From an uncultured Woeseiaceae bacterium (GTDB taxonomy: Bacteria > Pseudomonadota > Gammaproteobacteria > Steroidobacterales > Woeseiaceae): a stretch of 64,000 nt of DNA. Location: NCBI GenBank assembly GCA_964568835.1, contig CAZMRZ010000003.1, forward strand, positions 35,651-99,650, read 5' to 3'. Below the pieces are notes generated by a model, which was not told the origin of the DNA, ran no database searches, and saw only the letters and a list, made by a program, of their open reading frames with translations. The position numbers and the translations under genes are program-made. Below, one piece after another: positions 17,040-54,408 of this stretch (its first letter is position 1; every line of letters starts with the position of its first letter).

Positions 17040-18894
17040 CGAGTAATTCCAGCCGCTCCGCGGTGGCGTCGGCGGGTGGGACCGCCTCGCCAATGACAAT
17101 CGGCACCTTGGCGAAAAGACGCCCGGGGATTTTACGAATTCCGCCGCCTTTGCGCCGGCTGAACCAGCTGCCCCACAAACGCCCCAAGGCAACAGGAATG
17201 ACGGGTACTGGTCGTCGCGCGATGATCTTTTCGATCCCGGGCCTGAAGCGCTGTACTTCGCCGTCGGGCGTCAAACCACCTTCCGGGAAAATACAGACGA
17301 TATTGCCCGCCGCTAGTTCGGCATCGACTTTTTCGAAGGCTTCGTTCATTAGATCCTCGTCCTCAGCTTTGGAGGCGATCGGGATCGCCTTCGCATTGCG
17401 AAACAGAAAGCTGAGAAACGGCATCTGAAAAATCTTGTAATACATGACAAAACGCATCGGTCGTGCGACCGAGCCGCCAAGAATGATCGGGTCCATGAAA
17501 CTGACGTGATTGCAGACAACGATGGCCGGACCGCTCTTCGGAATGTTGTCGAGGCCGCTGGGTCGAAGTCTGTACACGACGTTGATAACGATCCATGCCA
17601 AGAAACGCATCAGGAATTCTGGCAGCAATGAATATATGTAGATCGCAACAATAGCGTTGAAAACGGCGATGAAGAGAAACAGCTCGGGTATCGAGAAACC
17701 GGACTTGAGAATAATGATACTGACGACTGCCGCGCTGACCATGAGCAGCGAGTTGATGATGTTATTTGCGGCAATGATGCGCGACAAGTGACGGCGCTCG
17801 GAGCGTTTCTGTATCAGAGCATATAGCGGAACGCTGTAAAACCCGCCGAATGCACCCAGTAATGTCAGGTCGGCGAGAATTCGCCAACTGCCGCTGCGGT
17901 TCAGAAATTCGGCGACGGACGAAACAGTGGTAAGCGCCGCTTCAGGTTGTGCGAAATAGAGGTCGACAGCAAACAGGCTCATGCCGATCGAGCCAAACGG
18001 TACGAGTCCAAGCTCGATTCGATGATCGGACATGCGTTCGCAAAGCAACGAACCCAGTCCGACCCCAACGGCAAACGCGACCAGTAAGGCTGTAACAACG
18101 GATTCATTACCGTTGAGAATATCGGCTGCGTAAGCAGGCATCTGAATGGTCATCGCCGAGCCGAAGAACCAGAACCAGGAAATTCCGAGAATCGACAGAA
18201 AAACACTTTTCTCTTCCCGAGCGAAACTGACGATACGCCACGTTTCTTTCCAGGCATTCCAATTGATCGTCAACTCCGGGTCGACCGCTTCCGTTTTAGG
18301 GATCTGTCGACTTGTTAGATAGCCGATGCAGGCGACACCGATAAGCGTCAGCGCCAGAACGGTTTGACGATCTGCCTCATAGTCAACGGCCTCCACGCCG
18401 ATAATCAGGCCGACAATGATCGCAATATAGGTTCCCGACTCGACGAGCGCATTGCCGCCGATCAATTCTTCGGTGCGCAGTTTCTGCGGCAGGTAGGCGT
18501 ATTTTACAGGGCCAAACATGGTTGACTGGCAGCCCATGAGAAACAGTACGAACAGCAGCAATGAGTACTTCTGCGAAAGCAGGGCGATGGCTGCCAGCGT
18601 CATTAACGCTATTTCGAGAAGCTTGATGCGTCGCATCAGCATCGATTTCTCGTACTTGTCCGCCAGTTGACCGGCCGTCGCGGAGAACAGGAAAAAGGGC
18701 AGAATGAACAGGAACGCCGCGACGTTTGCCAGCACCGTATGGTCCATGCTCATTATCTGGACACCCTGAAATGTGATCAGGATCACAAGCCCATTGCGGA
18801 AGATATTGTCGTTTAGGGCGCCAAGGAACTGTGTGCCGAAGAAAGGTGCGAAGCGGCGCTGCTTGAGTAGCGAAAACTGGCTGGATTCTGACAA
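17011..18894 (-). CDS. Lysophospholipid transporter (LplT-type MFS) fused to a PlsC-family acyltransferase
   Basis: 12-TM MFS body, then acyltransferase motifs CNHVSFMDP (HX4D) and IFPEGG. I place the start at in-frame TTG 18894 (MSESSQFSLLKQRRFAPFFGTQFLGA, preceded by AAGGA). The ORF track extends to 19137, which would overlap the divergent lipoprotein gene. Confidence 0.8.
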   Translation of the reverse strand: MSESSQFSLLKQRRFAPFFGTQFLGALNDNIFRNGLVILITFQGVQIMSMDHTVLANVAAFLFILPFFLFSATAGQLADKYEKSMLMRRIKLLEIALMTLAAIALLSQKYSLLLFVLFLMGCQSTMFGPVKYAYLPQKLRTEELIGGNALVESGTYIAIIVGLIIGVEAVDYEADRQTVLALTLIGVACIGYLTSRQIPKTEAVDPELTINWNAWKETWRIVSFAREEKSVFLSILGISWFWFFGSAMTIQMPAYAADILNGNESVVTALLVAFAVGVGLGSLLCERMSDHRIELGLVPFGSIGMSLFAVDLYFAQPEAALTTVSSVAEFLNRSGSWRILADLTLLGAFGGFYSVPLYALIQKRSERRHLSRIIAANNIINSLLMVSAAVVSIIILKSGFSIPELFLFIAVFNAIVAIYIYSLLPEFLMRFLAWIVINVVYRLRPSGLDNIPKSGPAIVVCNHVSFMDPIILGGSVARPMRFVMYYKIFQMPFLSFLFRNAKAIPIASKAEDEDLMNEAFEKVDAELAAGNIVCIFPEGGLTPDGEVQRFRPGIEKIIARRPVPVIPVALGRLWGSWFSRRKGGGIRKIPGRLFAKVPIVIGEAVPPADATAERLELLVRTLRGELR

Positions 18895-19056
18895 GCTTTC
18901 GTCCTTGTGGGTCAGCTGAGGGTCACTATAGCGCGAAATCTCGAGATTACCGTTCAAAACTGCGAACTCGCGTCGATATGGGAATTGAACATCTTTGCTA
19001 TTATGGCCAACGTACGAGCATGATTTTTCTACCATTTGGCCAATTGATACTGAATT

Positions 19057-19680
19057 TTGACGATGCGAAACACTTATACACAATTGATTTTGACGCTTTT
19101 CTCCATTGGGCTTCTTGCCGGATGCGAGGGAGAGCACCGGTCTCGATCAACAACCGAGTTCCTTGAGAACCCGATTATGCTCGAGGCGGCCATGGTCCGG
19201 TGTTCTCAGGATCGATCGGCAACTCGCTACGATGCTGAATGCGTAAACGCGCGCCAGGCGGTCTCAACTATCGAAGCGGAAAAGGAAGCAGAACGCCATG
19301 CTGAGCTTGAGGCTCGATCAGAAAGTAAGCGTCGGGCGTTGCGACGAGCTCAGGCGGCGGCAACACAGGCGCGACGACGGGCGGCCGAATCAGAAAGCTT
19401 GCGAAAAGAAGCGGAGTATCTTGCCCAATTCGGCGTGGCGTTGCCCGCAGACGACCAAACAAGGGTTGGGGAAGCCGATACGGGCAATACGCCTGTGGCT
19501 GTGATCCCAGAGAGTTCGGAGTCAGCGGTTATTTCGACTGGGTCAGGTGATGCCGTGCAAGCGACGGACGGCGGAAATGCGCCGGGCAGTGTTGCGATAC
19601 CGGAGGAAGACGATACGAAATCCGATCTGGACTCGATTCGCGACGAGCTGCAACGACGCAACAATGACGGCGGCGACTAG
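19057..19680 (+). CDS. Lipoprotein of unknown function (charged coiled-coil middle, acidic tail)
   Basis: Lipobox LLAGC after MTMRNTYTQLILTLFSIG. Cys pair CSQD...AEC, then an E/R/A-rich helix. Its stop shares the tetranucleotide CTAG with the convergent MscS stop. Confidence 0.65.
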   Translation: MTMRNTYTQLILTLFSIGLLAGCEGEHRSRSTTEFLENPIMLEAAMVRCSQDRSATRYDAECVNARQAVSTIEAEKEAERHAELEARSESKRRALRRAQAAATQARRRAAESESLRKEAEYLAQFGVALPADDQTRVGEADTGNTPVAVIPESSESAVISTGSGDAVQATDGGNAPGSVAIPEEDDTKSDLDSIRDELQRRNNDGGD

Positions 19681-23598: not shown

Positions 23599-24186
23599 CT
23601 AAAAAGACACTTCAGGTGCGGAGCGCATTTCCTCAGATTCGATTTCAAGGAAGCTGGCGAGATTGAAGCTGAAGAATCCCGCGATGAGGTTATTCGGGAA
23701 GTTCTCGACCGCGTTGTTGAAAACGAGAACAGCATCGTTGAATGCCTGCCTCGAAAACGCCACCTTGTTTTCAGTACTCGAGAGCTCTTCCTGAAACTGC
23801 ATCATATTTTGATTTGCTTTGAGATCAGGATAAGCTTCGGAGAGTGCAAACAGTCGGCCGAGGGCACTACCCAATGCGCCTTCGGACGCGCCCAGTTTTT
23901 TCATGGCTTCTGCATTAGCAGGATCCGCTTTGGCGGCATCGAGATCGGCAACAGCATTATTTCGAGCTTGTACGACGGCTTCAAGAGTTTCGCGCTCGTG
24001 TTTCATGTAGCCCTTGACTGCCTCGATCAGATTCGGAATCAAGTCGTAGCGGCGAGTGAGTTGCACGTCGATTTGCGCAAATGCGTTCCGAACCCGGTTG
24101 CGTTTATTGACGAGGCCGTTATAGATACCGACAGCCCAAAAACCTATCGCTGCAATAATGCCCAGGAATATCAAGAATGAAATCAC
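23599..24186 (-). CDS. lemA: LemA family protein
   Basis: GTG start after GAAGGAG. Single TM, then YNGLVNKRNRVRNAFAQIDVQLTRRYDLIPNL...FAVENFPNNL, the LemA signature. Confidence 0.9.
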   Translation of the reverse strand: MISFLIFLGIIAAIGFWAVGIYNGLVNKRNRVRNAFAQIDVQLTRRYDLIPNLIEAVKGYMKHERETLEAVVQARNNAVADLDAAKADPANAEAMKKLGASEGALGSALGRLFALSEAYPDLKANQNMMQFQEELSSTENKVAFSRQAFNDAVLVFNNAVENFPNNLIAGFFSFNLASFLEIESEEMRSAPEVSF

Positions 24187-25214
24187 TGTTACGCTCCTTC
24201 TTCAAAGGTTGTGAAGCCAAGCATAACCTCAGGCTTGGACTAAAACTAGCGGTGCTGCTGTCGCTGGCCCCATTCCCGTTGCAGGCGGAATGGCTGGGTG
24301 ATGCACGGCCGATGATGGGTACCGAAGTTAGCGTTTATCTCTGGAGCGATGACGATGAGGCAGGTCGTGCCGCTTTAGAGAGTGTTTTTCAGGAGGCGGG
24401 TCGTATAGACCGACTCATGAGTACCTACAAAGATGATAGCGAAATCTCGAAAATCAACCGCGAGGCAGCGAATGGCCCCGTTCGATCCGGACCTGAGTTG
24501 TTCGACCTGATTGCACGCTCTTTGGAAATATCGACTCTGACACAAGGATCGTTCGACATTACTTATGAGAGTGTCGGGCAACACTATGATTTCAGAGCAC
24601 GCCAACGTCCCGACGAGGTGACGGTCGAGTCCGAGCTTGAAAATATCAATTATCGGTACGTGATTCTGGATGCGGCGGCAGGCAGTGTTGCTTATCGAAA
24701 GGAGGGCGTACGCATCAATCTCGGGGGAATCGCCAAAGGTTACGTCGTTGAGCGTGGTATCAGTATTCTTCGAGCGAAAGGCATACGAAATGCGATTGTG
24801 ACCGCGGGCGGGGACTCCAGATTGCTCGGCGACCGTCTTGGGCGGCCATGGATAGTCGGCATTCGAGATCCTCGGATTGATGGTGAGGTCGCGATTTCTG
24901 TGCCGCTGGAGGATGAAGCGATATCGACGTCCGGTGACTACGAGCGATATTTTGATGAGGATGGTATCCGCTATCACCACATCATCCACCCGAGTACGGG
25001 TGAGCCTGCCAGCGGTGTGCACAGTGCAACCGTCATTGGGCCGGACGCTGTGACCACCGACGCCTTGTCGACCAGCGTATTCGTGATGGGCGTGGACAAA
25101 GGGCTGCGTATGATCGCGTCACTGCCCGACTATGAAAGTATCGTCATTGATTCCGATGGGCAGGTTTTCTTTTCTGACGGCCTGCAGCAACCCACCGTTC
25201 CCACGGCAGACTAG
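24177..25214 (+). CDS. apbE: FAD:protein FMN transferase (ApbE family)
   Basis: MGTEVSVYLW, SEISKIN, GSFDIT, GGIAKGY and AISTSGDYERYF motifs. An ATG 24177 start would overlap the divergent lemA start by 10 nt, so the start is uncertain. Confidence 0.85.
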   Translation: MKSLLRSFFKGCEAKHNLRLGLKLAVLLSLAPFPLQAEWLGDARPMMGTEVSVYLWSDDDEAGRAALESVFQEAGRIDRLMSTYKDDSEISKINREAANGPVRSGPELFDLIARSLEISTLTQGSFDITYESVGQHYDFRARQRPDEVTVESELENINYRYVILDAAAGSVAYRKEGVRINLGGIAKGYVVERGISILRAKGIRNAIVTAGGDSRLLGDRLGRPWIVGIRDPRIDGEVAISVPLEDEAISTSGDYERYFDEDGIRYHHIIHPSTGEPASGVHSATVIGPDAVTTDALSTSVFVMGVDKGLRMIASLPDYESIVIDSDGQVFFSDGLQQPTVPTAD

Positions 25215-25501
25215 GCCGCAAAAAAACCGCTAATGTCGCTGAAAGGCGACGGCTTTTCACTTTAAATTCAGGTTGATACGCCTATTATAGGTGTCTGGAT
25301 AGCGGTGAAAAAAATCTTTGGGAATAATGTCGATTTAACGTAATCTGTGACGATTGCGTTAATTTCCTGTCTCAGAAATTAAGCACCATTATGTTTAGGA
25401 AAAACGGGTTGTGTGACGATTATCACGGCTCAGGATCGCTGTGACTGTCACCATTCATGGTCGCCGGAAGGAACCGGGCAAGCAAAACAAGGAACGGACT
25501 G

Positions 25502-25999
25502 ATGAAAATCAAGAACTTAACATTAGGGCTATTGATAACTGCATTTGCGGCAACCGCGCTCGCGTCTTCGGATCTGGAAGGCAAGGCGGCGCCGGACTTC
25601 GCTCTCAAGAGCTCGACTGGTGAGAACCTGCGCCTGTCGGAGTTTCGCGGCGATGTCGTGATGATCAATTTCTGGGCCACCTGGTGCGGACCGTGTCGTC
25701 AGGAAATGCCGTTGCTTGACGAGCTATACGCGCGCTATGAACGCGTTGGATTCAATTTGTTGGGCGTGAACATCGATGATGATTCTCGCCGGGCAATGCA
25801 AATGATTGAGGAACTTGGTGTCGATTTTCCGGTGCTCTTCGATGCAAGAAAAGAGGTCAGCAAGCTTTATAAAGTCGATGCGATGCCGGTCACTGTACTT
25901 GTTGATAGAGAGGGCAAGGTGCGCCACGTCCATCATGGATACAAACCCGGATACGAAGAAAAATATCTCGATCAGATTCGTTCATTGCTCAGAGAGTAA
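25502..25999 (+). CDS. TlpA/ResA-like periplasmic thiol:disulfide oxidoreductase (redoxin)
   Basis: ATG 25502 gives the signal peptide MKIKNLTLGLLITAFAATALA. Active site NFWATWCGPCRQEMP. Confidence 0.88.
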   Translation: MKIKNLTLGLLITAFAATALASSDLEGKAAPDFALKSSTGENLRLSEFRGDVVMINFWATWCGPCRQEMPLLDELYARYERVGFNLLGVNIDDDSRRAMQMIEELGVDFPVLFDARKEVSKLYKVDAMPVTVLVDREGKVRHVHHGYKPGYEEKYLDQIRSLLRE

Positions 26000-26011
26000 C
26001 GAAGGCGCCTG

Positions 26012-26575
26012 TTGGCAGGAGAAAGGATAGTGACGAAGACATTAATCAGCCTGATCGCCGTAGCGGCATTAGCATTTAGCATAACGGCAGCGGCTCAGGA
26101 CAATGAGGAAGCAGAATCCCGGCAGGAGTTCCGCAGCATCGATAAGGATGTGCAGACTCTGAAGAAGGAAGTTCTTGATCTGAACCGAGATCTGTTCCTG
26201 CTTGAGGAAGAGTTGCTGTTTCCGGCGAACTCCCAAGTCGCTTTCTTTATCTCCATGGATGTCGGTGAGTACTTTGAAGTCGATTCCGTGAATATCAAGA
26301 TCGACGGTAAAGACGTTGCGAATTACCTTTATACCGAACGCGAAGCGGACGCATTGGTTCGTGGTGGCGTTCACCGCGTACACATGGCGAACCTGAAGAC
26401 GGGTGATCACGAGCTGGTCGCTATCTTCACCGGCAAAGGACCGCATGTTCGAGACTACCGACGTGGTGCAACGCTGAATTTCAACAAAGGAATCGGCGCG
26501 AAGTACGTCGAGTTGGAAATCACCGACCGCGTGAAGAAGCAGCAGCCCGAATTCGTCATCAAAGAGTGGGAGTGA
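26012..26575 (+). CDS. Secreted hypothetical protein (coiled coil plus beta-rich domain), member of the Tol/Ton-like cluster
   Basis: Signal peptide ...TKTLISLIAVAALAFSITAAAQ. An alternative GTG start at 26030 follows GGAGAAAGGA. It lies 12 nt after tlpA-like and 3 nt before the next gene. Confidence 0.65.
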   Translation: MAGERIVTKTLISLIAVAALAFSITAAAQDNEEAESRQEFRSIDKDVQTLKKEVLDLNRDLFLLEEELLFPANSQVAFFISMDVGEYFEVDSVNIKIDGKDVANYLYTEREADALVRGGVHRVHMANLKTGDHELVAIFTGKGPHVRDYRRGATLNFNKGIGAKYVELEITDRVKKQQPEFVIKEWE

Positions 26576-26578
26576 TAC

Positions 26579-28456
26579 TTGCTCCGAGGTTGCTCCATAG
26601 CTAGTCGCATTCGCGCAGGTTTAATACTCTTGGTGTTAGCAGCGCCGGCTGCCTATGCGGCGAAAATCGATAAAGAACCGATCGTAGTTCAGGATCCGCA
26701 ATACGGTGAGGTGCTTTTTCACTTCTATCAGGAAGACTATTTCCCGGCGATCGTAAAGCTACTTGCGGCGAAAGAGCGGCAGCAGCTGGATGATCATGCT
26801 GAAGACTCCGAACTGCTGCTCGGTGGCATGTACCTGTCCTACGGTCATCATCTCGAGGCTGCGGCAATTTTTGAACGCATGCTGGCGGATAATGTTTCGA
26901 CTGAAATTCGTGACCGCACCTGGTTTTTCCTTTCCAAGATCTGGTACCAACGCGGCTATCTCGACAAGTCTCAGGAAGCGCTTGGCTTCATCGAGGGCGA
27001 GCTGCCCAAGAATCTGCAACGTGAGGCGTTGATGCTCGAGGCGCAAATTTTGATCGACGCGGGCGAATATGATCGTGCGATCGCATTACTGCAAAACTGG
27101 AAAGGCAAGACGGAGTGGGCGAGCTACGCGAAATTCAATGTCGGCGTCGCTCTGGTGCGCAGTGGGCGAATTGAAGAGGCACGGGCTTTACTGAACGACC
27201 TGGGCAATCTCAACCCATTTAATGACGAGCTAAGCGCACTACGGGATAAGGCAAATCTCGCTTTGGGATACGCGTTGCTGCAGGACAAGCAGCCGCTGGC
27301 GGCGAAAGCGCCTTTGCAACGCGTGAGACTTGAAGGCCCGTTTTCGAATAAGGCGCTTCTGGGTGTCGGCTGGGCCGATGCCGAGCTCGACAATTATCAG
27401 CGTGCGCTGGCGCCCTGGATGGAGCTACGTGGCCGGGATCTTCTGGATTCGGCGGTGCAGGAGTCCATGCTGGCTATTCCCTATGCGATGGCGCAGCTGG
27501 ACTCGATTAGTCAGGCCGCGGATCACTATTTGAACGCTATCGAAGCGTTCTATGATGAGTCGAGTCGACTGGACAGAACCATCGCTCACATTGAGTCGGG
27601 CGATATGTTCGATGAGTTTCTTACGACTGGCCCATTGGATAGCACCGGCTGGTATTGGCAGTTGGAGCAACTGCCGGAAGGGCCCGAAGCGCGATATTTG
27701 TTTCACTTGCTGGCCTCGCATGAGTTTCAGGAAGGCCTCAAGAATTATCGAGACTTGAATTATCTCTATCAGAACCTCGATGCTTGGCAGGGTAGCGTCG
27801 ATGTTTACGGCAACATGCTGGAAACCCGCAAAGAGGCGTACGAACAAAGGCTGCCGCGTGTTGAAGATGCGCTGGCTCGCGCGGATCTTGATGGCATGGT
27901 CAATCAGAAGCTCGAATTTGACTCGACCCTCAACAATATTGCAGAAAGCCAGGACTGGCTCGCGCTCGCCACTGGTTCCGAGTTCGAAATGTGGGGCGAG
28001 ATAACGGGCCTGGAGAATACGCCAGCATTGCGTGCAGATATTCCCGAGGCCGCCGAAGTACGCGACAAGATTCAGCTCTTGAAGGGCGTTTTGCAGTGGC
28101 AGCTGGAAAGAGAGTTCAAAGATCGATTGTGGAGAATTCGACGCAATCTCAATGATGCCGGTGAGGCTCTGGTCGCGACGCAGCGATCACGTCGTCAGAT
28201 TGATGAAACGATACGCAATGAGCCCTTGCGATTTGAAGAGCTGAGCAATCGCGTTTACGGTCTGGCACCACGCATTGAAGGCATGAAGATGAGTGTCGAA
28301 GACGCACTCTCTGAGCAACGTACGTTCTTGCAGTCGATTGCGGTTGGCGAGCTCCAGGCACAGAAACAGCGTTTGGATGTCTACACCATCCAGGCGCGTT
28401 TTGCGTTAGCGGCAATTTACGATGTGGCCGCTACCGAAGAGGAGGCGATCCAGTGA
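26579..28456 (+). CDS. Secreted TPR/coiled-coil protein (625 aa)
   Basis: Signal peptide LILLVLAAPAAYA. Repeated TPR-like helical hairpins (e.g. GEYDRAIALLQNW, RIEEARALLNDL), then a long coiled-coil C-terminal half. Confidence 0.75.
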   Translation: MLRGCSIASRIRAGLILLVLAAPAAYAAKIDKEPIVVQDPQYGEVLFHFYQEDYFPAIVKLLAAKERQQLDDHAEDSELLLGGMYLSYGHHLEAAAIFERMLADNVSTEIRDRTWFFLSKIWYQRGYLDKSQEALGFIEGELPKNLQREALMLEAQILIDAGEYDRAIALLQNWKGKTEWASYAKFNVGVALVRSGRIEEARALLNDLGNLNPFNDELSALRDKANLALGYALLQDKQPLAAKAPLQRVRLEGPFSNKALLGVGWADAELDNYQRALAPWMELRGRDLLDSAVQESMLAIPYAMAQLDSISQAADHYLNAIEAFYDESSRLDRTIAHIESGDMFDEFLTTGPLDSTGWYWQLEQLPEGPEARYLFHLLASHEFQEGLKNYRDLNYLYQNLDAWQGSVDVYGNMLETRKEAYEQRLPRVEDALARADLDGMVNQKLEFDSTLNNIAESQDWLALATGSEFEMWGEITGLENTPALRADIPEAAEVRDKIQLLKGVLQWQLEREFKDRLWRIRRNLNDAGEALVATQRSRRQIDETIRNEPLRFEELSNRVYGLAPRIEGMKMSVEDALSEQRTFLQSIAVGELQAQKQRLDVYTIQARFALAAIYDVAATEEEAIQ

Positions 28457-31275
28457 TCTCGCGTCCTGTCCTTACCGTGTTGATTGCGATATTTCTTGTC
28501 GTGGCGGTGACGCCGGCAAGTGCGGCGCGCGTGAAAGAAAAGGACACGATCAAGAGTCTTGAAAATAAAGAGATCGATATCCGAAGAGGAAATGTAATCC
28601 TCGGAAGTTCCGATCTCGCACGTGAGAATTACCGCGCGTTTCTTGATCTGGTTACCGACGATCCGGAGCTGCGAGCGGAGGCCATGCGCCGACTGGGCGA
28701 TCTCGAGCTTGAGGCTACTGAGGCCGAGCAACTAACAGAGAATCTCGATGCGCTGGATAGCGCGGGTTATAACAATGCAGTCGGTCTGTATCAGCAATTG
28801 CTGGAGGCTTATCCGGATTACCGCCGCAATGATACGGTGTTGTATCAGCTGGCTCGCGCCTATGAGATCGGCGGTCGCACTGACGAGGCGCTCGAAGTTC
28901 TTGAGCAGCTGGTAGGCAAGTACCCGGACACGTTGTTGATCGATGAAGTGCAGTTTCGTCGCGGTGAGATGTTGTTCTTGCGCAAGCGCTACAATGAGTC
29001 AGAAGCGGCCTATCAAGGCGTCGTCAGATATGGCGAGGAATCCCGATTCTACGAACAGTCGCTCTATAAACTGGGTTGGTCGCAATTCAAACTGGCCTGG
29101 CATGAAGATAGTCTGGTGCCGTTTTTCGAATTGCTCGATCGCAAAGTTGGCGATATCGAGATTGGGGAGGGCGAAGAACGCCTGCAGAGCCTGAAGCGTG
29201 CGGAACGTGAACTGGTTGAAGATACTTTCCGTGTATTGAGTATCAGTTTTTCCTACATGGAAGGTGCGACCGGCATCGATTCCTTCCTTGCGGGTCGTGG
29301 GAACCCTCATTACAGCTACATCATTTATAGCAATCTCGGCGATTTGTATCTCGAAAAGGAACGGTATCAGGACGCGGCCGTTACCTATGAGGCTTTCGTC
29401 AATCAAGATCCGTATCACGCCAAAGCACCGTTGTTGCAGGTCGAGGCAATTGAAGCCTACAAGCAAGGCGGATTTCCGAGTCTGGTATTGGAAGGCAAGA
29501 AGGACTTCGTCGAACGCTATGGTATGGACGGTGAGTTCTGGGTTCGAAATCCTCGCGAAAGCAATACCGAGGTTGCCGCGTATCTGAAGGCGAATCTGAC
29601 GGACCTCGCTCAGTACTACCATGCCGAGGCACAGAAGGATGGCGAGATCAGCGACTACCAGCAAGCGGCGAACTGGTATCGCAAATACCTTGCGTACTTT
29701 CCAGGCGAGGCGGATTCTGCCAATACAAACTTTCTGCTAGCGGAAATTCTTTTTGAGAGTCAGGATTTTCGAGCGGCCACTATTGAGTACGAACGTACCT
29801 CTTACGAATACCCGGCGCACGAAAGATCGGCCGAGGCTGGTTATGCGGCGATTCTCGCCTATCGTGAGCACGAGAAAGTCCTCGACGGCGGAACGCAAAA
29901 TCAGTGGCACGCGGACTATCTGGACAGCGGGCTGAAGTTCGCGGATACCTATCCGGAGCATCCCGAGTCTGGCGCCGTATTGACGACCGTGGCCGAAGAC
30001 CTGTTTCAACAAGATCAGTTTGATCTTGCGATTGCGGTCGGTGAGGCGGTTGTTGCCAAGCAACCTGCGGTGGACGGGAAACTCCTGAGAACGGCCTGGA
30101 CTGTAATTGCGCATTCGCACTTTGATCTCGAGAACTTTGCGGTCGCAGAAAATTCCTATTACAGCTTGCGAAGCTACACGCCAGCGGATGACCAGATGGC
30201 GGGTCAGGAGATCAAGGACCGCATCGCGTCGTCTATATACAAACAAGGCGAGCAGGCGCGCGACAGCGGCGATCTGGAAACTGCCGTTACACATTTCACA
30301 CGCCTCGGGCAGGTTGTCCCGGATTCAGGTATTCGAGCGACAGCGGAGTACGATGCCGCCGCCGCTCTGATCAATTTGCAGGCCTGGGACAGAGCATCCG
30401 GTGTATTGGAACGATTCAGATCGGACTATCCTGACAGTGAGTTCGCTGAGGACGTAACGCAGAAATTGGCGGTCACCTATCTTGAGGCAGGCCGATCCGG
30501 TGAAGCCGCGGCAGAGTTTGAACGAATTGCGGACACAGAGTCGAGCGGCGATGACGTGCGACGTGAGGCATTGTGGAAGGCGTCCGATCTATATAAAGAC
30601 TCGAGTTCACAAGCAGATGAACGACGTGTCCTGAACAACATTCTCGTCCGATATCCGAATCCATTATCAGAATCCATCGAGGCCCGATTCCGCTTGCTCG
30701 AAATCGCACGACAGACCGGCAACACTGCCGAAGTCAACGCACGCCTCGAGGAGATTATTCAGGTCGATGCGAGGGCGGGAGCACAACGCTCGGATCGCAC
30801 GCGGTTCCTGGCAGCCAAGGCGTCTCTTGAGTTGGCCGAACCTGTACGCAAGCGATTCGAAGTCGTCAAATTGTCGCAGCCGCTGGCGGACAGTCTGAGG
30901 TTAAAGAAGACATTGATGGAAGACGTCATCGCCGCATACACCGGGGCAGCCGATTACGGCGTTGCCGAAGTTACGACGGCCGCAACATTCCGTCTCGGCC
31001 AGGTTTACCAGCAGTTTAGTTCCGATCTGATGGCATCCGATCGGCCGGCCGAGCTGGACGCGGACGCAATGGAACAGTACGAAATTCTGCTCGAAGAACA
31101 GGCTTTCCCATTCGAAGAAAAGTCGATCGATTTGTATAAAGCAAATGCTGATCGGGCATCGAATGGTGTTTATGACGAGTGGGTACAGAAGAGTTTTGAG
31201 CAACTGGCATTGTTGATGCCGGCACGATATGCGAAAGAGGAGCGCAGCGAAGATGTTTTTACAGCGCTTTATTAA
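28453..31275 (+). CDS. Secreted large TPR-repeat protein (940 aa)
   Basis: The GTG start overlaps the upstream stop (GTGA). Signal peptide MISRPVLTVLIAIFLVVAVTPASA. TPR-like repeats run throughout (YQLARAYEIGGRTDEALEVLEQLVGKYP, YSNLGDLYLEKERYQDAAVTYEAFV and others). Confidence 0.8.
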   Translation: MISRPVLTVLIAIFLVVAVTPASAARVKEKDTIKSLENKEIDIRRGNVILGSSDLARENYRAFLDLVTDDPELRAEAMRRLGDLELEATEAEQLTENLDALDSAGYNNAVGLYQQLLEAYPDYRRNDTVLYQLARAYEIGGRTDEALEVLEQLVGKYPDTLLIDEVQFRRGEMLFLRKRYNESEAAYQGVVRYGEESRFYEQSLYKLGWSQFKLAWHEDSLVPFFELLDRKVGDIEIGEGEERLQSLKRAERELVEDTFRVLSISFSYMEGATGIDSFLAGRGNPHYSYIIYSNLGDLYLEKERYQDAAVTYEAFVNQDPYHAKAPLLQVEAIEAYKQGGFPSLVLEGKKDFVERYGMDGEFWVRNPRESNTEVAAYLKANLTDLAQYYHAEAQKDGEISDYQQAANWYRKYLAYFPGEADSANTNFLLAEILFESQDFRAATIEYERTSYEYPAHERSAEAGYAAILAYREHEKVLDGGTQNQWHADYLDSGLKFADTYPEHPESGAVLTTVAEDLFQQDQFDLAIAVGEAVVAKQPAVDGKLLRTAWTVIAHSHFDLENFAVAENSYYSLRSYTPADDQMAGQEIKDRIASSIYKQGEQARDSGDLETAVTHFTRLGQVVPDSGIRATAEYDAAAALINLQAWDRASGVLERFRSDYPDSEFAEDVTQKLAVTYLEAGRSGEAAAEFERIADTESSGDDVRREALWKASDLYKDSSSQADERRVLNNILVRYPNPLSESIEARFRLLEIARQTGNTAEVNARLEEIIQVDARAGAQRSDRTRFLAAKASLELAEPVRKRFEVVKLSQPLADSLRLKKTLMEDVIAAYTGAADYGVAEVTTAATFRLGQVYQQFSSDLMASDRPAELDADAMEQYEILLEEQAFPFEEKSIDLYKANADRASNGVYDEWVQKSFEQLALLMPARYAKEERSEDVFTALY

Positions 31276-31918
31276 TAGAGCAGCGGTTATTTCTCTGCTC
31301 ATAGCCGCACTGTTATTTGCGGGTTGTGGCGGATCTTCGCCGGTGCGGAGCTCGCCGGGGACGGAGCAATCCGGACGGGCGGATGCCCCACCATCTGGCG
31401 GCGAATCTGCTATGGCCATTCCGCCGGCTGTCCTGACGTTGTTTGAACAGGCAACCGCGTCAATGGCTGCAGGCGATTTCATCGATGCAGAGCTCAGATT
31501 CAAGGAGTTCTTGCTGCAATATCCGAGTTATCCGGGTGCACACGTGAACCTGGCGATCATTCACGCGAGCAGCGGAAATGACGCCGCCGCGAGGGCTTCT
31601 GTTGACGCCGCATTGGCGCTGGAGCCCAATCACGCCGCCGCACTGAACCAATTGGGCATGCTACTTCGCAGAAATGGCAATTTTTTGGAGGCAGAAGCCG
31701 CTTATTTGAAGGCCGTCACAGTTTCGCCCGAGTACGCCTTGGCACACTACAACCTAGGGGTTCTTAACGAACTGTACTTGCAGCGTCTGGATGTAGCGCT
31801 GCAGAACTTCGAAACCTACCAGTCACTTGTTGGCGAAGATAAACAGGTAGCGAAGTGGATCAAAGATCTGACGCGTCGCGTAGCGGCGAATCAGCGTACG
31901 GCAAACGTGGCGGACTGA
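31253..31918 (+). CDS. TPR-repeat lipoprotein
   Basis: ATG 31253 follows GAGGAG. Lipobox LLFAGC. TPR motifs AHVNLAIIHASSGNDAAARASVDAALALEPNHAAALNQLGMLLRRNGNFLEAEAAYLKAV. Confidence 0.8.
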   Translation: MFLQRFINRAAVISLLIAALLFAGCGGSSPVRSSPGTEQSGRADAPPSGGESAMAIPPAVLTLFEQATASMAAGDFIDAELRFKEFLLQYPSYPGAHVNLAIIHASSGNDAAARASVDAALALEPNHAAALNQLGMLLRRNGNFLEAEAAYLKAVTVSPEYALAHYNLGVLNELYLQRLDVALQNFETYQSLVGEDKQVAKWIKDLTRRVAANQRTANVAD

Positions 31919-32382
31919 TGGTCATGAGGATGATTGTTTATTCAAGCAAGCAGTTGCTCGGAACCGGAATCATGCTCGCCATGTTACTGGCAGCGTTTGC
32001 TGTTTTTGCACAGGAAGAGCTGGAAGATATTGGTCCGGCCGTGGATACCTCGGCGAATGAACCGGCTGGAGTTTCTGCAGCAGATGACGAGGACCTTGAG
32101 CCAGCGGTTGATACGTCCGCGAGCGTTACTGATATAACGCGTCGCACGACGGGAAGCCAGGTGATGGATTCAATTGAGTTGGGTCGCACCGAAATTACGG
32201 GCAACCAGGAGTTGCCGAAAGTTTTGTATATTGTGCCCTGGAAGAAATCGGACCCCGGGGACTTGATGGGACTGCCCGTCAATACGCTGCTCGATGAGGT
32301 GCTGGCACCGATCGACAGAGAAGAGTTTATCAGGCAGGTCGATTATCACGGTGACCTGTACGGAGAAGTTGAACAAGAGTAG
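31918..32382 (+). CDS. Small acidic membrane-anchored or secreted protein of unknown function
   Basis: The ATG overlaps the upstream stop (TGATG). Hydrophobic N-terminus GIMLAMLLAAFAVFA. Internal repeat ED(I/L)xPAVDTSA occurs twice. Conserved-looking ELPKVLYIVPWK segment. Confidence 0.65.
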   Translation: MVMRMIVYSSKQLLGTGIMLAMLLAAFAVFAQEELEDIGPAVDTSANEPAGVSAADDEDLEPAVDTSASVTDITRRTTGSQVMDSIELGRTEITGNQELPKVLYIVPWKKSDPGDLMGLPVNTLLDEVLAPIDREEFIRQVDYHGDLYGEVEQE

Positions 32383-32522
32383 GAGCGCGTCCCACGCGCG
32401 AATATGTACAAGCGTGTTTTCCCGTCAAGCGGGATCGAGATACGCGTAAATGAAAACTGTTTTTAGAGGTGCAGACGGAAGTCTGCAAGAGACGTTAATT
32501 CTGTTTTAAGAGGAGCAGACAA

Positions 32523-33167
32523 ATGAGCACCATAGTGCGTTTTTTCCAGGATGGCGGAGCATTCATGATCCCCATTCTGTTGGTTTTTGGTTTCGGCGTC
32601 GCGATTGCGATTGAGCGCTGGACCTACCTGACGGTGTCGGGTGCGAGCAATCGCACGTTGTGGAAGAAAATCGTGCCGTTTTTGAAGGCCGGTAACTTCC
32701 AGGAAGCCGCTCAGCACACCGCAAAATCCAAAGCAGCCATCGGATCCATCCTGACTTACGGCTTGTACCGCGTTAAGTCAGCTCGCCGTCGCGACGACAT
32801 TGAAAAAGCGATGGAAGAGAGCCTGATGGAAGTCGTGCCGCGTCTTGAGAAGCGCACGCACTACATTGCGACGCTAGCCAATATCGCGACATTACTGGGA
32901 CTGCTCGGAACGATCATTGGTTTGATCGCAGCGTTTACTGCGGTTGCCGAGGCAAACCCGGCGGACAAGGCGGATATGCTGTCAGCATCTATTTCAACTG
33001 CGATGAACACGACGGCGTTCGGTCTGATGGCCGCGATTCCGCTGCTGCTGATTCATGCGTTGCTGCAAACCAAGACGAATGCCTTGGTCGACAGCCTCGA
33101 GATGGCGAGCGTCAAGTTCTTGAACGCAGTTACCGAGCGTCAGCTTAAGTCGTCCGGAGGGGTATAA
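32523..33167 (+). CDS. MotA/TolQ/ExbB-family proton channel protein
   Basis: FFQDGGAFMIPILLVFGFGVAIAIERW N-terminus and the C-terminal pair of TM helices (LGLLGTIIGLI..., TTAFGLMAAIPLLL) are typical of ExbB/TolQ. Confidence 0.9.
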   Translation: MSTIVRFFQDGGAFMIPILLVFGFGVAIAIERWTYLTVSGASNRTLWKKIVPFLKAGNFQEAAQHTAKSKAAIGSILTYGLYRVKSARRRDDIEKAMEESLMEVVPRLEKRTHYIATLANIATLLGLLGTIIGLIAAFTAVAEANPADKADMLSASISTAMNTTAFGLMAAIPLLLIHALLQTKTNALVDSLEMASVKFLNAVTERQLKSSGGV

Positions 33168-33170
33168 ATC

Positions 33171-33698
33171 ATGATGCGTAGCCGCAGAGGCGGCCGACGT
33201 TATAACGACGATACGGCTGAACTCAACATCACGGCGTTCATGAACCTGATGGTTATTCTGGTTCCGTTCCTGCTCATTACCGCGGTGTTCTCGCGATTGG
33301 CAATTCTCGAATTGAATTTGCCAGGCTCCTCTTCTGAGCCCGTGGAACCGCAGGATCAGGTATTCCAGTTAGAGGTCATCGTTCGGTCTGACAAGATCGA
33401 AGTGGGTGATCGCAACCAGGGTTTGTTGGGTATCTACCCGAACACCGATGACGGCTACGATTTTGGTGCTGTTGGCGCAAAACTTGCGCAATTAAAAGTG
33501 CGTTATCCGGATAAGACGGAGGCGTCAATCCTGCTGGAGCAGGAAATTGCCTACGACACGTTAGTGCAGATTATGGATACCGTTCGGGTGTCCGTTGAGG
33601 TTGAATCCGGTGAAGACGATGAAAAGACGCTGGTTCGTTCGGATCTGTTCCCGGATATTTCGATCGGCGACGCGCCGGTCCTGGCGGGAGGTGCCTGA
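33171..33698 (+). CDS. ExbD/TolR-family protein, paralogue 1 (Asn at the conserved TM Asp position)
   Basis: AELNITAFMNLMVILVPFLL aligns to the ExbD/TolR motif E-I-N-V-T-P-(F/L)-(I/L)-D-V-(M/L)-L-V-L-L, but with N25 (AAC at 33243..33245) where Asp is expected. At 175 aa it is longer than typical ExbD. Confidence 0.85.
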   Translation: MMRSRRGGRRYNDDTAELNITAFMNLMVILVPFLLITAVFSRLAILELNLPGSSSEPVEPQDQVFQLEVIVRSDKIEVGDRNQGLLGIYPNTDDGYDFGAVGAKLAQLKVRYPDKTEASILLEQEIAYDTLVQIMDTVRVSVEVESGEDDEKTLVRSDLFPDISIGDAPVLAGGA

Positions 33699-34225
33699 TG
33701 GTTAAGTCCGGTCGCGCCAAACGCATGGAAAAGCACCACAAGCGCCACAAAGGCACCGGTGCCCTGAATCTCGTCTCATTGATGGATATCTTCACGATTC
33801 TTGTGTTCTTCCTGCTTGTCAATTCGTCGGACGTTCAAACGTTACCGAATGCGAAGGAACTGCAATTGCCGGAGTCGATTGCTGAAGAGAAAGCCAAAGA
33901 GACAGTGGTCATCCTGATCGGTCAGACCGACCTCATCGTGCAGGGCACGCCGGTTGCCAAGATCGCCGACATTTTAGCGACCAAAGGCAATGACATCCCT
34001 GAGCTACGTGAAGCACTGCTGTCACAAAATGACCGCGTACTTCGCCGCGAAGCTCAGGAAGATATCGCCGGTCGCGAGGTCACCATCATGGGCGACAAAG
34101 ACATTCCGTACCGCTTGTTGAAAAAGGTCATGGCGACCTGCACAGAGTCGGATTACGGGCGAATATCGCTGGCAGTGCTGCAAAAGAGTTCCGACGAACT
34201 CAGCAACATTCAGGCATCACGCTAG
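33698..34225 (+). CDS. ExbD/TolR-family protein, paralogue 2 (conserved TM Asp present)
   Basis: The ATG overlaps the upstream stop (TGATG). ALNLVSLMDIFTILVFFLL retains the conserved Asp (D30). Confidence 0.85.
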   Translation: MVKSGRAKRMEKHHKRHKGTGALNLVSLMDIFTILVFFLLVNSSDVQTLPNAKELQLPESIAEEKAKETVVILIGQTDLIVQGTPVAKIADILATKGNDIPELREALLSQNDRVLRREAQEDIAGREVTIMGDKDIPYRLLKKVMATCTESDYGRISLAVLQKSSDELSNIQASR

Positions 34226-34252
34226 GCGCAGGGACGACTGGGAGTCACGGAA

Positions 34253-35209
34253 TTGGATCTACCGTTTTACAGAGAATTTGACCTGCCCTGGACAACTGGC
34301 CGGAGCCAGGACAAAAAATTCCAGCGCTTGCTCGGGATCATATTCCTGATATGTGCGGTGCTCACTATTGTGTGGCCGTTCATTCCTGTCCCGGAGCCGG
34401 ATCCCTTCGATGTAGACGAGATTCCGCCGCGTATCGCCCAATTGCTATTGGAAGAAAAGCCACTGCCGCCGCCGCCGCCCGTGGTGGAGGAAGAACCTGA
34501 GCCAGAGCCGGATGATCCGGAACCTGAGCAGGTTGTGGAAGAAACGCCTGAGCCGGAACCTGAGCCTGAGCCGGAGCCGGAGCCTGAAATTGATCGAGAA
34601 GAGGTAGCTCGAGAACAAGCGCAAGCCGCTCTTATGCCGTTCGCTGAAGACCTGGCGGATCTCGTCGACAATAAACTATTGGACCAGGTTGCTGATGATC
34701 GCGACCTGACCGCATCGGTTGGCGAGGCTGAGCGAAATGAACGCTCCATGATTACATCGAAAGTCGGCACTGCGTCCGGTGGTATCAATACCGCGGCGAT
34801 GAGTCGCAACACCGGCGGATCGGGCATTGCCGGACGCAATACTACGCGCGTTGCCAGTCCTGTTGCCGGTATTGGCCAGCCGGGTGGCAGCGCAAGTCGC
34901 TCAGGATCCAGTGGCAAGGCTTCGCGTTCGCGTGAGGAAATTGAACTGGTCTTTGATAAGAATAAGGGCGCTATTTTCGCGCTCTACAATCGTGCGTTGC
35001 GCAGGGATCCGTCCCTCGAAGGTAAGCTGGTTCTAAAGCTTACGATCGATCCGAACGGTGTGGTGTCGTTCTGCGAAGTTGTATCCAGCGAGCTGGGTGA
35101 CGCAGAACTTGAGCGCAAGCTTGTCGCCCGCATCAAGATGTTCCGTTTTGAATCCAGAGATGTCGAAGCGATAACGACAACAAAACCGATCGATTTCTTC
35201 CCGGCTTAA
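34253..35209 (+). CDS. TonB-like energy-transducer protein (TM anchor, Pro-rich/(Pro-Glu)n linker, AgmX/PglI-type TonB C-terminal domain)
   Basis: TTG start after GGGAG. TM LLGIIFLICAVLTIVWPF, then PLPPPPPVVEEEPEPEPDDPEPE...PEPEPEPEPEPEPE. The C-terminal GAIFALYNRALRRDPSLEGKLVLKLTIDPNGVV...KPIDFFP resembles a TonB_C fold. Confidence 0.8.
   Translation: MDLPFYREFDLPWTTGRSQDKKFQRLLGIIFLICAVLTIVWPFIPVPEPDPFDVDEIPPRIAQLLLEEKPLPPPPPVVEEEPEPEPDDPEPEQVVEETPEPEPEPEPEPEPEIDREEVAREQAQAALMPFAEDLADLVDNKLLDQVADDRDLTASVGEAERNERSMITSKVGTASGGINTAAMSRNTGGSGIAGRNTTRVASPVAGIGQPGGSASRSGSSGKASRSREEIELVFDKNKGAIFALYNRALRRDPSLEGKLVLKLTIDPNGVVSFCEVVSSELGDAELERKLVARIKMFRFESRDVEAITTTKPIDFFPA
34547..34588 (+). repeat. 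Seven tandem CCN-GAR (Pro-Glu) hexanucleotide units inside the TonB-like gene
   Basis: cctgagccggaacctgagcctgagccggagccggagcctgaa encodes (PE)7. This is coding low-complexity sequence, not a CRISPR array. Confidence 0.9.
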
Positions 35210-50900: not shown

Positions 50901-51443
50901 GTGCGTCGCGCAGTGGCGATCCAGCTCATCATTTCTCGGGAGCTCGGATTGAATTTTTGTGAAAATCCCTGGCAGGGTTCCTTCATCATCAAGGAGCTGA
51001 CTGATCTCGTCGAAGATGCCGTGTACGACGAGTTTGATCGAATCTCCGAGCGCGGCGGTGTGCTCGGCGCGATGGACACGATGTATCAGCGTGGCAAGAT
51101 TCAGGAAGAGAGCCTCTATTACGAAGGCAAGAAACACGATGCGTCGCTGCCATTAATCGGTGTTAACACGTTCCTGCCAAAAGAAGGTCAGGAAGACGAA
51201 GTGCATGATCTGGAATTGATCCGTTCGACGGAAAGCGAGAAGCAGGATCAGATTAGGCACTTGCGCGGATTTCAGGCAACGCATAGTGAGGACAGTGATG
51301 CCGCCTTGCGCAGTTTGCAAAGCATCGCGAGAGAACGCGGCAACGTTTTCGCTGAGTTAATGGAAACGGTTAAATCCAATTCGCTGAGCCAGATATCCGG
51401 TGCCCTATACGACGTCGGCGGTGAGTATCGACGAAACATGTAA
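48000..51443 (+). CDS. icmF: Fused isobutyryl-CoA mutase (B12-binding domain, MeaB-like G-protein domain, mutase catalytic domain)
   Basis: N-terminal B12 motif [10 protein letters not shown]...GHNRS. P-loop [12 protein letters not shown] with NKYD (MeaB-like). The C-terminal ~600-aa methylmalonyl-CoA-mutase-like barrel includes [17 protein letters not shown]. 1147 aa. Confidence 0.9.
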
Positions 51444-54298: not shown

Positions 54299-54324
54299 AC
54301 TATCGCCTGAATAGATTCTTCGAA

Positions 54325-54405
54325 TCACAGGGGTGGCCGGCTGGCCTGAGACTCGCGACGAGAACCCTTAGAACCTGATCCGGTTAATGCCGGCGTAGGA
54401 AGGGA
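54325..54405 (+). promoter_or_regulatory. TPP (THI-box) riboswitch
   Basis: CACAGGGGUGGCCGGCUGGCCUGAGA...ACCCUUAGAACCUGAUCCGGUUAAUGCCGGCGUAGGAAGGGA contains the invariant GGGGUG, CUGAGA, ACCC, ACCUGAUC-GGnUAAUnCC-GCGUAGG elements. The 3' end overlaps the SD of the receptor gene (ATG 54409). Confidence 0.9.
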
Positions 54406-54408
54406 AAT

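Follow-up and report, generated by a model that had tools for sequence, protein, structure and literature searches.

What does a cluster of genes build that joins an ExbB/TolQ-like protein, two ExbD/TolR-like paralogues and a TonB-like protein to giant TPR proteins? The cluster lies at positions 25502–35209 of a 64,000-nucleotide stretch from an uncultured Woeseiaceae bacterium (GenBank assembly GCA_964568835.1, contig CAZMRZ010000003.1), which was analysed as a whole and is called the window here. The best overall explanation, to which we give a probability of about 0.85, is that the cluster represents, in Woeseiaceae, the Agl-Glt "core complex", the stand-alone and probably ancestral module out of which the Myxococcus gliding (Agl-Glt) and spore-coat (Agl-Nfs) machines developed. 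An earlier note, made from the sequence alone, had called the cluster Agl/Glt-core-like, and its gene order and protein sizes agreed with the core clusters of Luciano et al. (2011; PMC3169522).

The list of open reading frames (ORFs) gave ten tightly packed, co-directional + strand ORFs at 25502–35209, where the earlier note had counted nine genes from a list that itself sums to ten. Following a redoxin gene and a gene here called p187, the window order is GltC-GltD-GltE-X-AglR-AglQ-AglS-GltG, with sizes of 625/940/229/~155/214/175/175/318 amino acids (aa), and fits the published core clusters. In detail, these are a GltC-like secreted TPR protein (26579–28456, 625 aa; TPR_19 and other TPR matches), a GltD-like secreted TPR scaffold (28453–31275, 940 aa; TPR_6, TPR_19 and YfiO matches), a GltE-like TPR lipoprotein (31253–31918, 221 aa from the ATG at 31253 or 229 aa from 31229; TPR_2, TPR_16 and other TPR matches), the small secreted acidic protein X between them and the aglR-like gene (31918–32382, 154 aa), an AglR-like proton-channel subunit of the MotA/TolQ/ExbB family (32523–33167, 214 aa; MotA_ExbB 3e-29), two ExbD/TolR paralogues of 175 aa each at the AglQ position (33171–33698; ExbD 3.7e-15) and the AglS position (33698–34225; ExbD 3e-17), and a GltG-like transducer of TonB/TolA type (34253–35209, 318 aa). 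The domain calls of the earlier note were borne out by Pfam and NCBIfam (redoxin, TPR in the 625-, 940- and 229-aa proteins, MotA_ExbB, ExbD twice, AgmX/PglI), the motor, TPR and AgmX/PglI models being matched as it had expected. Close homologues are labelled Woeseiaceae.

The junctions quoted in the earlier note were all present: GTGA at 28453–28456, TGATG at 31916–31920 and 33696–33700, a 23-nucleotide (nt) overlap of the GltE-like ATG at 31253 with the GltD-like TAA (31273–31275), gaps of 3 nt after 26575 and after 33167, and 27 nt before the GltG-like TTG at 34253. A 140-nt gap (32383–32522) before the ExbB-like gene had been left unmentioned. This spacer is the sole sizeable gap within the cluster, holds a short hairpin, GCAGACGGAAGTCTGC, and could contain an internal promoter or a processing site; no promoter or terminator consensus was found on its + strand. 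A promoter/terminator scan of the cluster gave nothing above the level in shuffled sequence, and an Rfam search gave no match within the cluster.

In the 2011 survey, the core was found clustered in Gammaproteobacteria, one betaproteobacterium, Geobacter and Fibrobacter, with unknown function, and the gamma- and betaproteobacterial clusters of its Table S3 have the same order as the window and nearly equal lengths (PMC3169522). Methylibium Mpe_A1224-1229 reads 634/941/243/[skipped tag]/217/170 aa, and the Marinobacter tags Maqu_1595-1601 read 321/162/176/221/[skipped tag]/162/939 aa in reverse order; the GltC (MXAN_2541) homologues of Gamma- and Betaproteobacteria are 634–660 aa and the GltD homologues 933–964 aa long (PMC3169522). 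The window carries seven glt/agl homologues in one co-directional region together with an extra small gene between gltE and aglR, and the locus tag skipped in the Table S3 clusters corresponds to the position of X. The cluster is a further member of the kind catalogued in 2011, and as such unsurprising to a specialist. The statement in the earlier note that core clusters had been noted in gammaproteobacteria without an assigned function also agreed with Table S3 and with papers of 2013 (PMC3858216), 2020 (Islam et al.) and 2025, which still call the function unknown. Literature searches found no functional study of the core complex for Gammaproteobacteria or Woeseia.

To what extent the gene order is conserved was then evaluated by scanning a genome collection with an AglR-specific pattern, [VI][AS]TLLGLLGT, derived from an alignment of 19 sequences. 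The scan gave at least 597 confirmed matches, of which 80 loci were kept; gene maps were drawn with iterated hidden Markov models (HMMs) built from the ten window proteins, and neighbours were surveyed over 85 loci (numbered L below). Among the kept loci, the order (Rdx)(p187) C D E X R Q S G, Rdx being the redoxin, recurred in dozens of genomes of several phyla. It was found in Woeseiaceae, Lentisalinibacter, Steroidobacteraceae, Thiogranum, Thiohalobacter, Chromatiales, Acidiferrobacterales and Pseudomonadales, and also in Nitrospirota, KSB1, Caldithrix and several delta lineages; Piscinibacter has this order as well. This recurrence across phyla indicates that the genes cluster far more than expected by chance, and the TPR genes are syntenic with the motor genes far beyond Woeseiaceae, which removes a lack of such synteny in other genomes from the grounds that the earlier note had named for refuting its reading. 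The distribution of the core was described as patchy and shaped by horizontal transfer (PMC3169522).

A shorter second AglR-Q-S-GltG-like module without TPR genes was also seen in Woeseiaceae and other Gammaproteobacteria (L082:185-5582, L083:2581-8547, L036:3-4622). The module follows, in L082 and L083, a protein of ~850 aa in which a Ser/Thr kinase is fused to an FGE-sulfatase-like domain, and a truncated ORF upstream of the module in L036 belongs to the same BLAST family as this kinase fusion.

The AglR-like protein was compared with known motor proteins at the levels of pairwise identity, curated models and tree position. Its identity to an Anaeromyxobacteraceae AglR orthologue was 38%, with a score of 139 bits, as compared with 51 bits to Escherichia coli TolQ and 46 bits to ExbB. 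The gene of this orthologue belongs to a stand-alone locus, ExbB-ExbD-ExbD with 230/163/190 aa, which has the M1 aglR-aglQ-aglS arrangement given for Anaeromyxobacter (Adeh_4310-4308, 224/162/194 aa; PMC3169522). On the NCBIfam equivalog models, the AglR-like protein scored 65.5 bits for TolQ (TIGR02796, cut-off 221) and 44 bits for ExbB (TIGR02797, cut-off 206), and the ExbD paralogues reached 21–27 bits on ExbD models with cut-offs >120 and 23 bits on TolR (TIGR02801, cut-off 127). A neighbour-joining tree, with only three E. coli outgroups, grouped the AglR-like proteins apart from E. coli TolQ and ExbB, with a support of 97/100 bootstraps for this clade. An exhaustive HMMER search with the ExbB-like protein returned only 160 cluster representatives at E ≤ 1e-30, the named members of these clusters including Piscinibacter, an uncultured deltaproteobacterium, Bacteriovoracaceae and Anaeromyxobacteraceae. 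In the PDB, sequence searches matched only TolQ/ExbB and ExbD chains, with none for the TonB-like protein or the second ExbD paralogue. The AglR-like residues aligned with two TolQ-type Thr positions of PDB TolQ are both Thr, and we take these positions to be T145 and T178 of E. coli TolQ. By analogy, the AglR-like protein would form the pentameric ring of the motor.

The two ExbD/TolR paralogues differ at the transmembrane proton-binding site. In every locus compared, the first window paralogue matched the first (AglQ) gene and the second matched the second (AglS) gene. The FMNLM motif of the AglQ-position protein aligns with FIDVM (D25) of E. coli ExbD, so that Asn replaces the proton-binding Asp, while the AglS-position protein retains its transmembrane Asp (LMDIF). 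Across the loci, the AglQ-position site was Asn in 61, Ser in 3, Ala in 2 and Asp in 13; the Asp was found only in stand-alone Anaeromyxobacter-type R-Q-S loci or Bdellovibrionota-type clusters and in none of the 66 scorable core-type loci. The AglS-position Asp was present in 79/79 homologues. Viewed as a 5:2 motor, the window set keeps both ring Thr positions and has a protonatable Asp in the AglS-like subunit only, its AglQ-like partner having Asn. Because an AglQ-position subunit that is unable to bind a proton cannot make a working homodimeric plug, and yet is strictly conserved, the substitution pattern argues for an obligate AglQ-like/AglS-like heterodimer as the plug, in which only one site carries a proton. 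The AlphaFold AglR5QS model (PMC11761067) is consistent with this. In Myxococcus xanthus, AglQ and AglS both carry Asp (PMC9389320), and AglQ D28N abolishes motility and sporulation (PMC3858216). Literature searches for a prior mention of the AglQ-position Asn substitution found none.

The three TPR proteins were related to the Glt proteins to different degrees. The GltC-like protein equals the MXAN_2541 (GltC) homologues of Gamma- and Betaproteobacteria in position and size, and Myxococcales-type loci (not M. xanthus itself) were reached only by a second-round HMM (7e-18 and 2e-18). The GltD-like protein consists largely of YbgF/CpoB-type TPR modules, TIGR02795 (YbgF) being matched in 5 stretches with 104 bits summed, and in phmmer it matched the 1000–1300 aa D-position proteins of Myxococcales-type loci at 1e-18 to 1e-35. 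The GltE-like protein matched E-position ORFs of these loci at 1e-10 to 1e-13 and the NCBIfam gliding_GltE model at E = 5.9e-8, far below its cut-off. Its LLFAGC lipobox, like the PPPPP/(PE)n linker of the TonB-like protein, is present as described earlier, and the lipobox Cys was conserved in 27/33 homologues. Since residue +2 is Gly, the lipoprotein is probably sorted to the outer membrane.

The GltG-like protein has a short cytoplasmic N-terminus (~25 residues) with a conserved LPW motif and one transmembrane helix without the SHLS/His motif, followed by a PPRIAxLLLE segment, a Pro/Glu-rich linker (PPPPP, (PE)n), a disordered Gly/Ser-rich stretch and a C-terminal domain of AgmX/PglI type; its conserved motifs were seen in 38 homologues. 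The assignment of this domain, already proposed in the earlier note, was confirmed with NF033768 (64.2 bits, cut-off 40), and tonB_Cterm TIGR01352 was also passed (29.1 bits, cut-off 27.1). The gliding_GltG model matched the C-terminal domain only (E = 4.3e-12, 45 bits vs. a 650-bit cut-off). Such a partial match is expected, because the GltG-like protein lacks the FHA half, FHA domains not being found in it with Pfam or NCBIfam. On its linker, tolA_full scored 20 bits vs. a cut-off of 59. The AlphaFold2 (AF2) model of the whole protein was poor, with a pLDDT (predicted local distance difference test) score of 54.6, the transmembrane helix and C-terminal domain being better (~73). In a Foldseek search of the PDB, 16 of the top 17 matches of the C-terminal domain were TonB/TolA/FusB/HasB C-terminal domains, all at a non-significant E ≥ 0.28.

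In 45 loci, the gene for protein X stands between those for the GltE-like and the AglR-like protein. X has a disordered acidic N-terminus and a conserved C-terminal motif, ELPKVLYIVPW…LLDEVLAPIDREEF, with the consensus end LLDEVLAPVDRxxF. The earlier note had called this protein anchored; by inspection of the sequence, its signal peptide looks cleavable (…AVFA|QEE), so that it is more probably secreted. X itself had no Pfam or NCBIfam match. An expanded X-family HMM matched small ORFs in the gltE-aglR gap of Myxococcales-type loci (1e-10 to 1e-3, among them 1e-10, 1e-6 and 1e-6), three of which weakly match NF033764 gliding_CglF (E 0.005–0.025; 90-bit cut-off), and hhalign gave P = 7e-4 and a probability of 26%. 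CglF is GltF (PMC4488436), a mostly disordered protein that adds a beta-strand to the sheet of the TonB-like domain in GltG and binds GltC through its C-terminal helix (PMC11761067), and which was likened to a TonB box (PMC9389320). Because X shares the layout of GltF, it is, with moderate confidence, probably the GltF/CglF (TonB-box-like) equivalent.

How such a machine might work can be proposed from published models, in which AglR5QS-GltG resembles TolQ5R2-TolA, GltG is wrapped on GltD, and GltE and GltC are docked on GltD (PMC11761067); a two-hybrid interaction of AglR with GltG was also reported (PMC3169522). By analogy with TolQR-TolA and the AlphaFold Agl-Glt model, five AglR-like subunits would surround one AglQ-like and one AglS-like transmembrane helix. 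The sole protonatable Asp would lie on the AglS-like helix, and the AglQ-like Asn would mimic permanent protonation. Proton flow would then drive rotation or cyclic rearrangement of the 5:1:1 unit against the GltG-like transmembrane helix. The long, disordered Pro-rich linker of the GltG-like protein would cross the peptidoglycan, and together with the TonB-like C-terminal domain would grip the GltD-like TPR hub, on which the GltE-like outer-membrane lipoprotein and the GltC-like protein would dock beneath the outer membrane. X would resemble GltF in giving the GltG C-terminal domain a beta-strand similar to a TonB box, and GltC a C-terminal helix.

The output is the least certain part of the proposal. 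It may be mechanical work on outer-membrane or surface cargo, the likeliest cargo being an exported glycan or a protein complex of the outer membrane, which the machine would move, anchor or expose; the import of nutrients and a constricting role in cell division are less likely. A Wza-type exporter gene was found downstream of the module in 14 non-gammaproteobacterial loci, on the same strand (the opposite one in L027), with a Wzc-type gene in 7 and glycosyltransferases too; the lineages are Fibrobacterota, Myxococcales-type loci and L006. These downstream genes in other phyla echo the Agl-Nfs/Exo relationship of Myxococcus, where Agl-Nfs handles the Wza-exported Exo polymer (PMC3858216). For the core, a role in protein secretion was suggested by Islam et al. 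(2020), and Wartel et al. (2013; PMC3858216) termed it a "basal transport machinery".

Examples of such export genes are the Wza-type (Poly_export/SLBB), Wzc-type (Wzz/GNVR/kinase) and sugar transferase genes at L006:9868-17900, L012:13044-16132 and L014:10099-14860; further loci with them downstream are L015, L016, L019, L027-L029, L031, L037, L043, L057 and L072.

The earlier note had judged the cluster to be neither a classical TonB nor a Tol-Pal system, and this view stood, as the TolQ/ExbB equivalog cut-offs were missed and no receptor, TolB or Pal gene is in the cluster. A second, divergent Tol-Pal-like tether or constrictor of the outer membrane would differ from the core complex in output only and overlaps with it in mechanism. 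In this explanation, AglR/Q/S would correspond to TolQR and the GltG-like protein to TolA, with the TPR proteins serving as coordinators like an enlarged CpoB/YbgF. TolQ is the best curated match of the ExbB-like protein (65 bits), and PDB TolQ gave the top sequence matches, but both the TolQ and TolR cut-offs were missed widely. Likewise, five YbgF/CpoB-type TPR modules in the 940-aa protein (104 bits summed, TIGR02795), the weak TolA match on the GltG-like linker and the published likening of AglR5QS-GltG to TolQ5R2-TolA (PMC11761067) point toward Tol, whereas two heterologous TolR-like subunits take the place of a homodimer, neither TolB nor Pal was found in the cluster or the loci examined, and the patchy, horizontally shaped distribution (PMC3169522) is unlike that of a housekeeping division system. 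With these points together, the Tol-Pal-like explanation is very unlikely. Also very unlikely is a specialised TonB-ExbB-ExbD system, whose TonB-like protein energises outer-membrane receptors for nutrient uptake and whose TPR proteins are accessory. The C-terminal domain marginally passes tonB_Cterm (29.1 vs. 27.1 bits) but scores twofold higher on the AgmX/PglI model, and the ExbB (44 vs. 206 bits) and ExbD (21–27 vs. >120 bits) equivalog scores are low. A Pro-rich linker is present, and the top structural matches, though non-significant, are TonB/FusB/HasB C-terminal domains; the transmembrane helix, however, has no His and lacks SxxxH, the transmembrane-helix motif of established TonB proteins. 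The genome does have TonB-dependent receptor(s), e.g., at 54409–56445, but no receptor gene is in or adjoining the cluster and no receptor family recurs among the neighbours of the 85 loci. AglRQS-GltG was called Ton-like by Islam et al. (2020), whereas the motor is kept in a fixed order with GltC/D/E-like genes across phyla.

Given the homology to seven Agl/Glt proteins, with X as an eighth if it is GltF-like, we also considered whether Woeseiaceae use the cluster as a functional machine for gliding motility; this appears extremely improbable. Gliding requires genes specific to Myxococcales/Bdellovibrionales, namely those for GltK, GltI, GltJ, the adhesins and the barrels GltA/B/H of the outer membrane; these are absent from the cluster, and none of gltA, B, H, K, I and J was found in it or within ~10 kb. 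The cytoplasmic FHA domains, which link GltG with the polarity platform, are also missing from the GltG-like protein, and Luciano et al. argued that the core is insufficient for motility and its carriers are not known gliders (PMC3169522).

Several points weigh against the core-complex explanation itself, or against the mechanism and output proposed with it. No polysaccharide-export, outer-membrane barrel or adhesin gene lies near the cluster in the window, and the cargo idea is borrowed from other phyla. With the Myxococcus FHA domains missing from the GltG-like protein and GltA/B/H/K/I/J absent, the AlphaFold-based architecture may not transfer. Confidence in the model of the GltG-like protein is low and none of its structural matches is significant, and the link of X to GltF rests on weak scores (E 0.005–0.025, hhalign probability 26%).

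A wider joint reading was also formulated, which we regard as speculative and, taken as a whole, unlikely. It holds that the ancestral core would be a distinct class of 5:2-type motor with an obligate one-Asp/one-Asn ("protonated-mimic") heterodimer plug, in which a GltG/GltF-like TonB-box handshake drives a periplasmic TPR shaft that organises or anchors Wza-exported polymers or outer-membrane proteins at the surface. This activity would later have been converted to gliding and spore-coat assembly, and Gammaproteobacteria would additionally depend on a redoxin/ApbE redox-flavin pair and p187.

The genes upstream of the GltC-like gene were assayed for recurrence in the same survey. The redoxin (25502–25999, + strand, 165 aa) is a secreted TlpA/ResA-like thiol:disulfide oxidoreductase with a WCGPC motif, matched by Pfam Redoxin (1.2e-31) and AhpC-TSA (4.4e-31), and by the NCBIfam ResA subfamily with 131 bits, below the cut-off. 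A homologue is found upstream of p187/GltC-like genes in ~15 loci, including L033 of Nitrospirota and the rearranged L051 of Pseudomonadales, where Rdx-p187-C has moved as one block. The idea that the redoxin is merely a lineage-specific neighbour was rejected, as it stays with p187 and GltC in both L033 and L051. The p187 gene follows at 26012 or 26030 to 26575 on the + strand; the ORF from 26012 encodes a secreted protein of 187 aa, and the likeliest start is the GTG at 26030, giving 181 aa as in homologues. This protein had no Pfam or NCBIfam match. In its AF2 model (mean pLDDT 81.9), the signal peptide is followed by one long alpha-helix, reaching to about residue 63, and by a beta-sandwich of eight strands, for which Foldseek against the PDB gave generic Ig-like sandwich matches only, none at E < 1e-3. 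In 23 loci p187 is directly upstream of the GltC-like gene.

The ApbE-family flavin mononucleotide transferase gene (24177–25214, + strand; Pfam ApbE E = 5.6e-80) encodes a protein with an N-terminal signal/lipoprotein-like leader. ApbE is co-directional with redoxin/p187 in 10 gammaproteobacterial loci (L045, L053, L058, L066, L067, L070, L076, L080, L081 and L089), with a permuted order in Thiogranum. Between ApbE and the cluster, a terminator-like hairpin (25234–25251) and a promoter-like site (25261–25288) were found, both of classes no commoner than in shuffled sequence. ApbE may be an accessory and is not a proven member of the cluster. A search of the periplasmic proteins of the cluster found neither a flavinylation motif (ApbE substrate) nor a conserved Cys pair (TlpA substrate). 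Overall, redoxin, p187 and ApbE are recurrent gammaproteobacterial accessories.

Two further observations concern these genes. The p187 homologues P0417, P0436 and P0438 are named "AraC family transcriptional regulator" in NCBI, a name to which signal peptide, fold and domain searches give no support. In Bdellovibrionota-type loci (L018:7420-7755, L038:2584-2916, L042:6093-6422, L079:9464-9793), a thioredoxin-fold ORF of 104–121 aa lies just 5′ of the aglR-like gene, making this a second lineage with such a gene beside the motor.

The flanking genes are unrelated to the motor cluster. Upstream lie M48 peptidase, LemA and ApbE genes, and downstream 2-hydroxyacid dehydrogenase, histidine phosphatase, DNA-repair and signal peptidase genes; no TonB-dependent receptor, TolB, Pal or Wza gene was found within ~10 kb of the cluster. 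The single TonB-dependent receptor gene of the window, at 54409–56445 (Plug and beta-barrel), lies 19 kb from the cluster and is unlinked to it. A thiamine pyrophosphate riboswitch (RF00059, 72 bits) stands directly 5′ of it within 54319–56445, which suggests a thiamine-regulated outer-membrane transporter. Elsewhere in the window are a 1332-aa protein in which an AAA_35 ATPase-like domain is joined with a proprotein-convertase P-domain and with WD40 beta-propellers (13041–17039), a fusion of a major facilitator superfamily transporter with an acyltransferase, of the lysophospholipid transporter/acyltransferase type (17011–19137, − strand), and an 1147-aa IcmF-like fusion (B12-binding/MeaB GTPase/methylmalonyl-CoA mutase) amid acyl-CoA metabolism genes (48000–51443).

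The window alone adds one more carrier, from an abundant marine-sediment family. The activity of the core would reveal what gliding motility and spore-coat assembly evolved from, and would add to flagella, Ton and Tol a fourth physiological role for motors of the MotA/ExbB type in ordinary Gram-negative bacteria. The comparison yields testable handles for this, namely the Asp/Asn asymmetry, the TonB-box-like candidate X, the three accessory genes and the Wza/Wzc link in other phyla; none of the four was met with in the literature searched.

Compared with ExbB-ExbD-TonB systems, including those with two ExbDs, the window cluster shares the protein families, a linker rich in Pro and a domain similar to TonB_C, for which a beta-strand ligand is the probable partner. 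It differs in having no TonB-dependent receptor, in falling short of the ExbB, ExbD and TonB equivalog thresholds, and in that the ligand strand probably comes from a dedicated periplasmic protein (X/GltF-like). Similar to Tol-Pal, it has an inner-membrane stator of the MotA/TolQ/ExbB family, a one-helix transducer whose linker is long, TPR modules of YbgF/CpoB type and a lipoprotein partner in the outer membrane. In contrast to Tol-Pal, it has no TolB/Pal, its plug would be a heterodimer with a single Asp, its transducer helix is without the SHLS motif, and giant TPR scaffolds stand in place of the 263-aa CpoB.

Like the Agl-Glt and Agl-Nfs machines of Myxococcus, the cluster combines one TolQ-like with two TolR-like proteins and has a TonB-like GltG whose C-terminal domain is of AgmX/PglI type. 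Also common to both are GltD as the hub, GltE as the lipoprotein, GltC as the adaptor and, probably, a small protein similar to GltF. The cluster is without GltA/B/H/K/I/J and adhesins, its GltG-like protein has 318 aa and no FHA domains while Myxococcus GltG has ~650 aa, its motor genes are in one operon with the glt-like genes, and its AglQ-like protein has Asn where Myxococcus AglQ has the essential D28. The closest likeness is to the published core complex, with seven named genes and an unnamed eighth in the same order and with lengths near those of Methylibium, Marinobacter, Hahella, Saccharophagus, Cellvibrio, Shewanella frigidimarina and Thioalkalivibrio. Relative to that complex, the window brings a new host family, Woeseiaceae, and a unit extended upstream by p187, the TlpA-like redoxin and probably ApbE, which are not named as core members in the literature examined. 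The distribution found in this study is also much wider than in the 2011 survey, with at least 597 genome matches that include Nitrospirota, KSB1, Calditrichota and Gemmatimonadota-labelled metagenome-assembled genomes.

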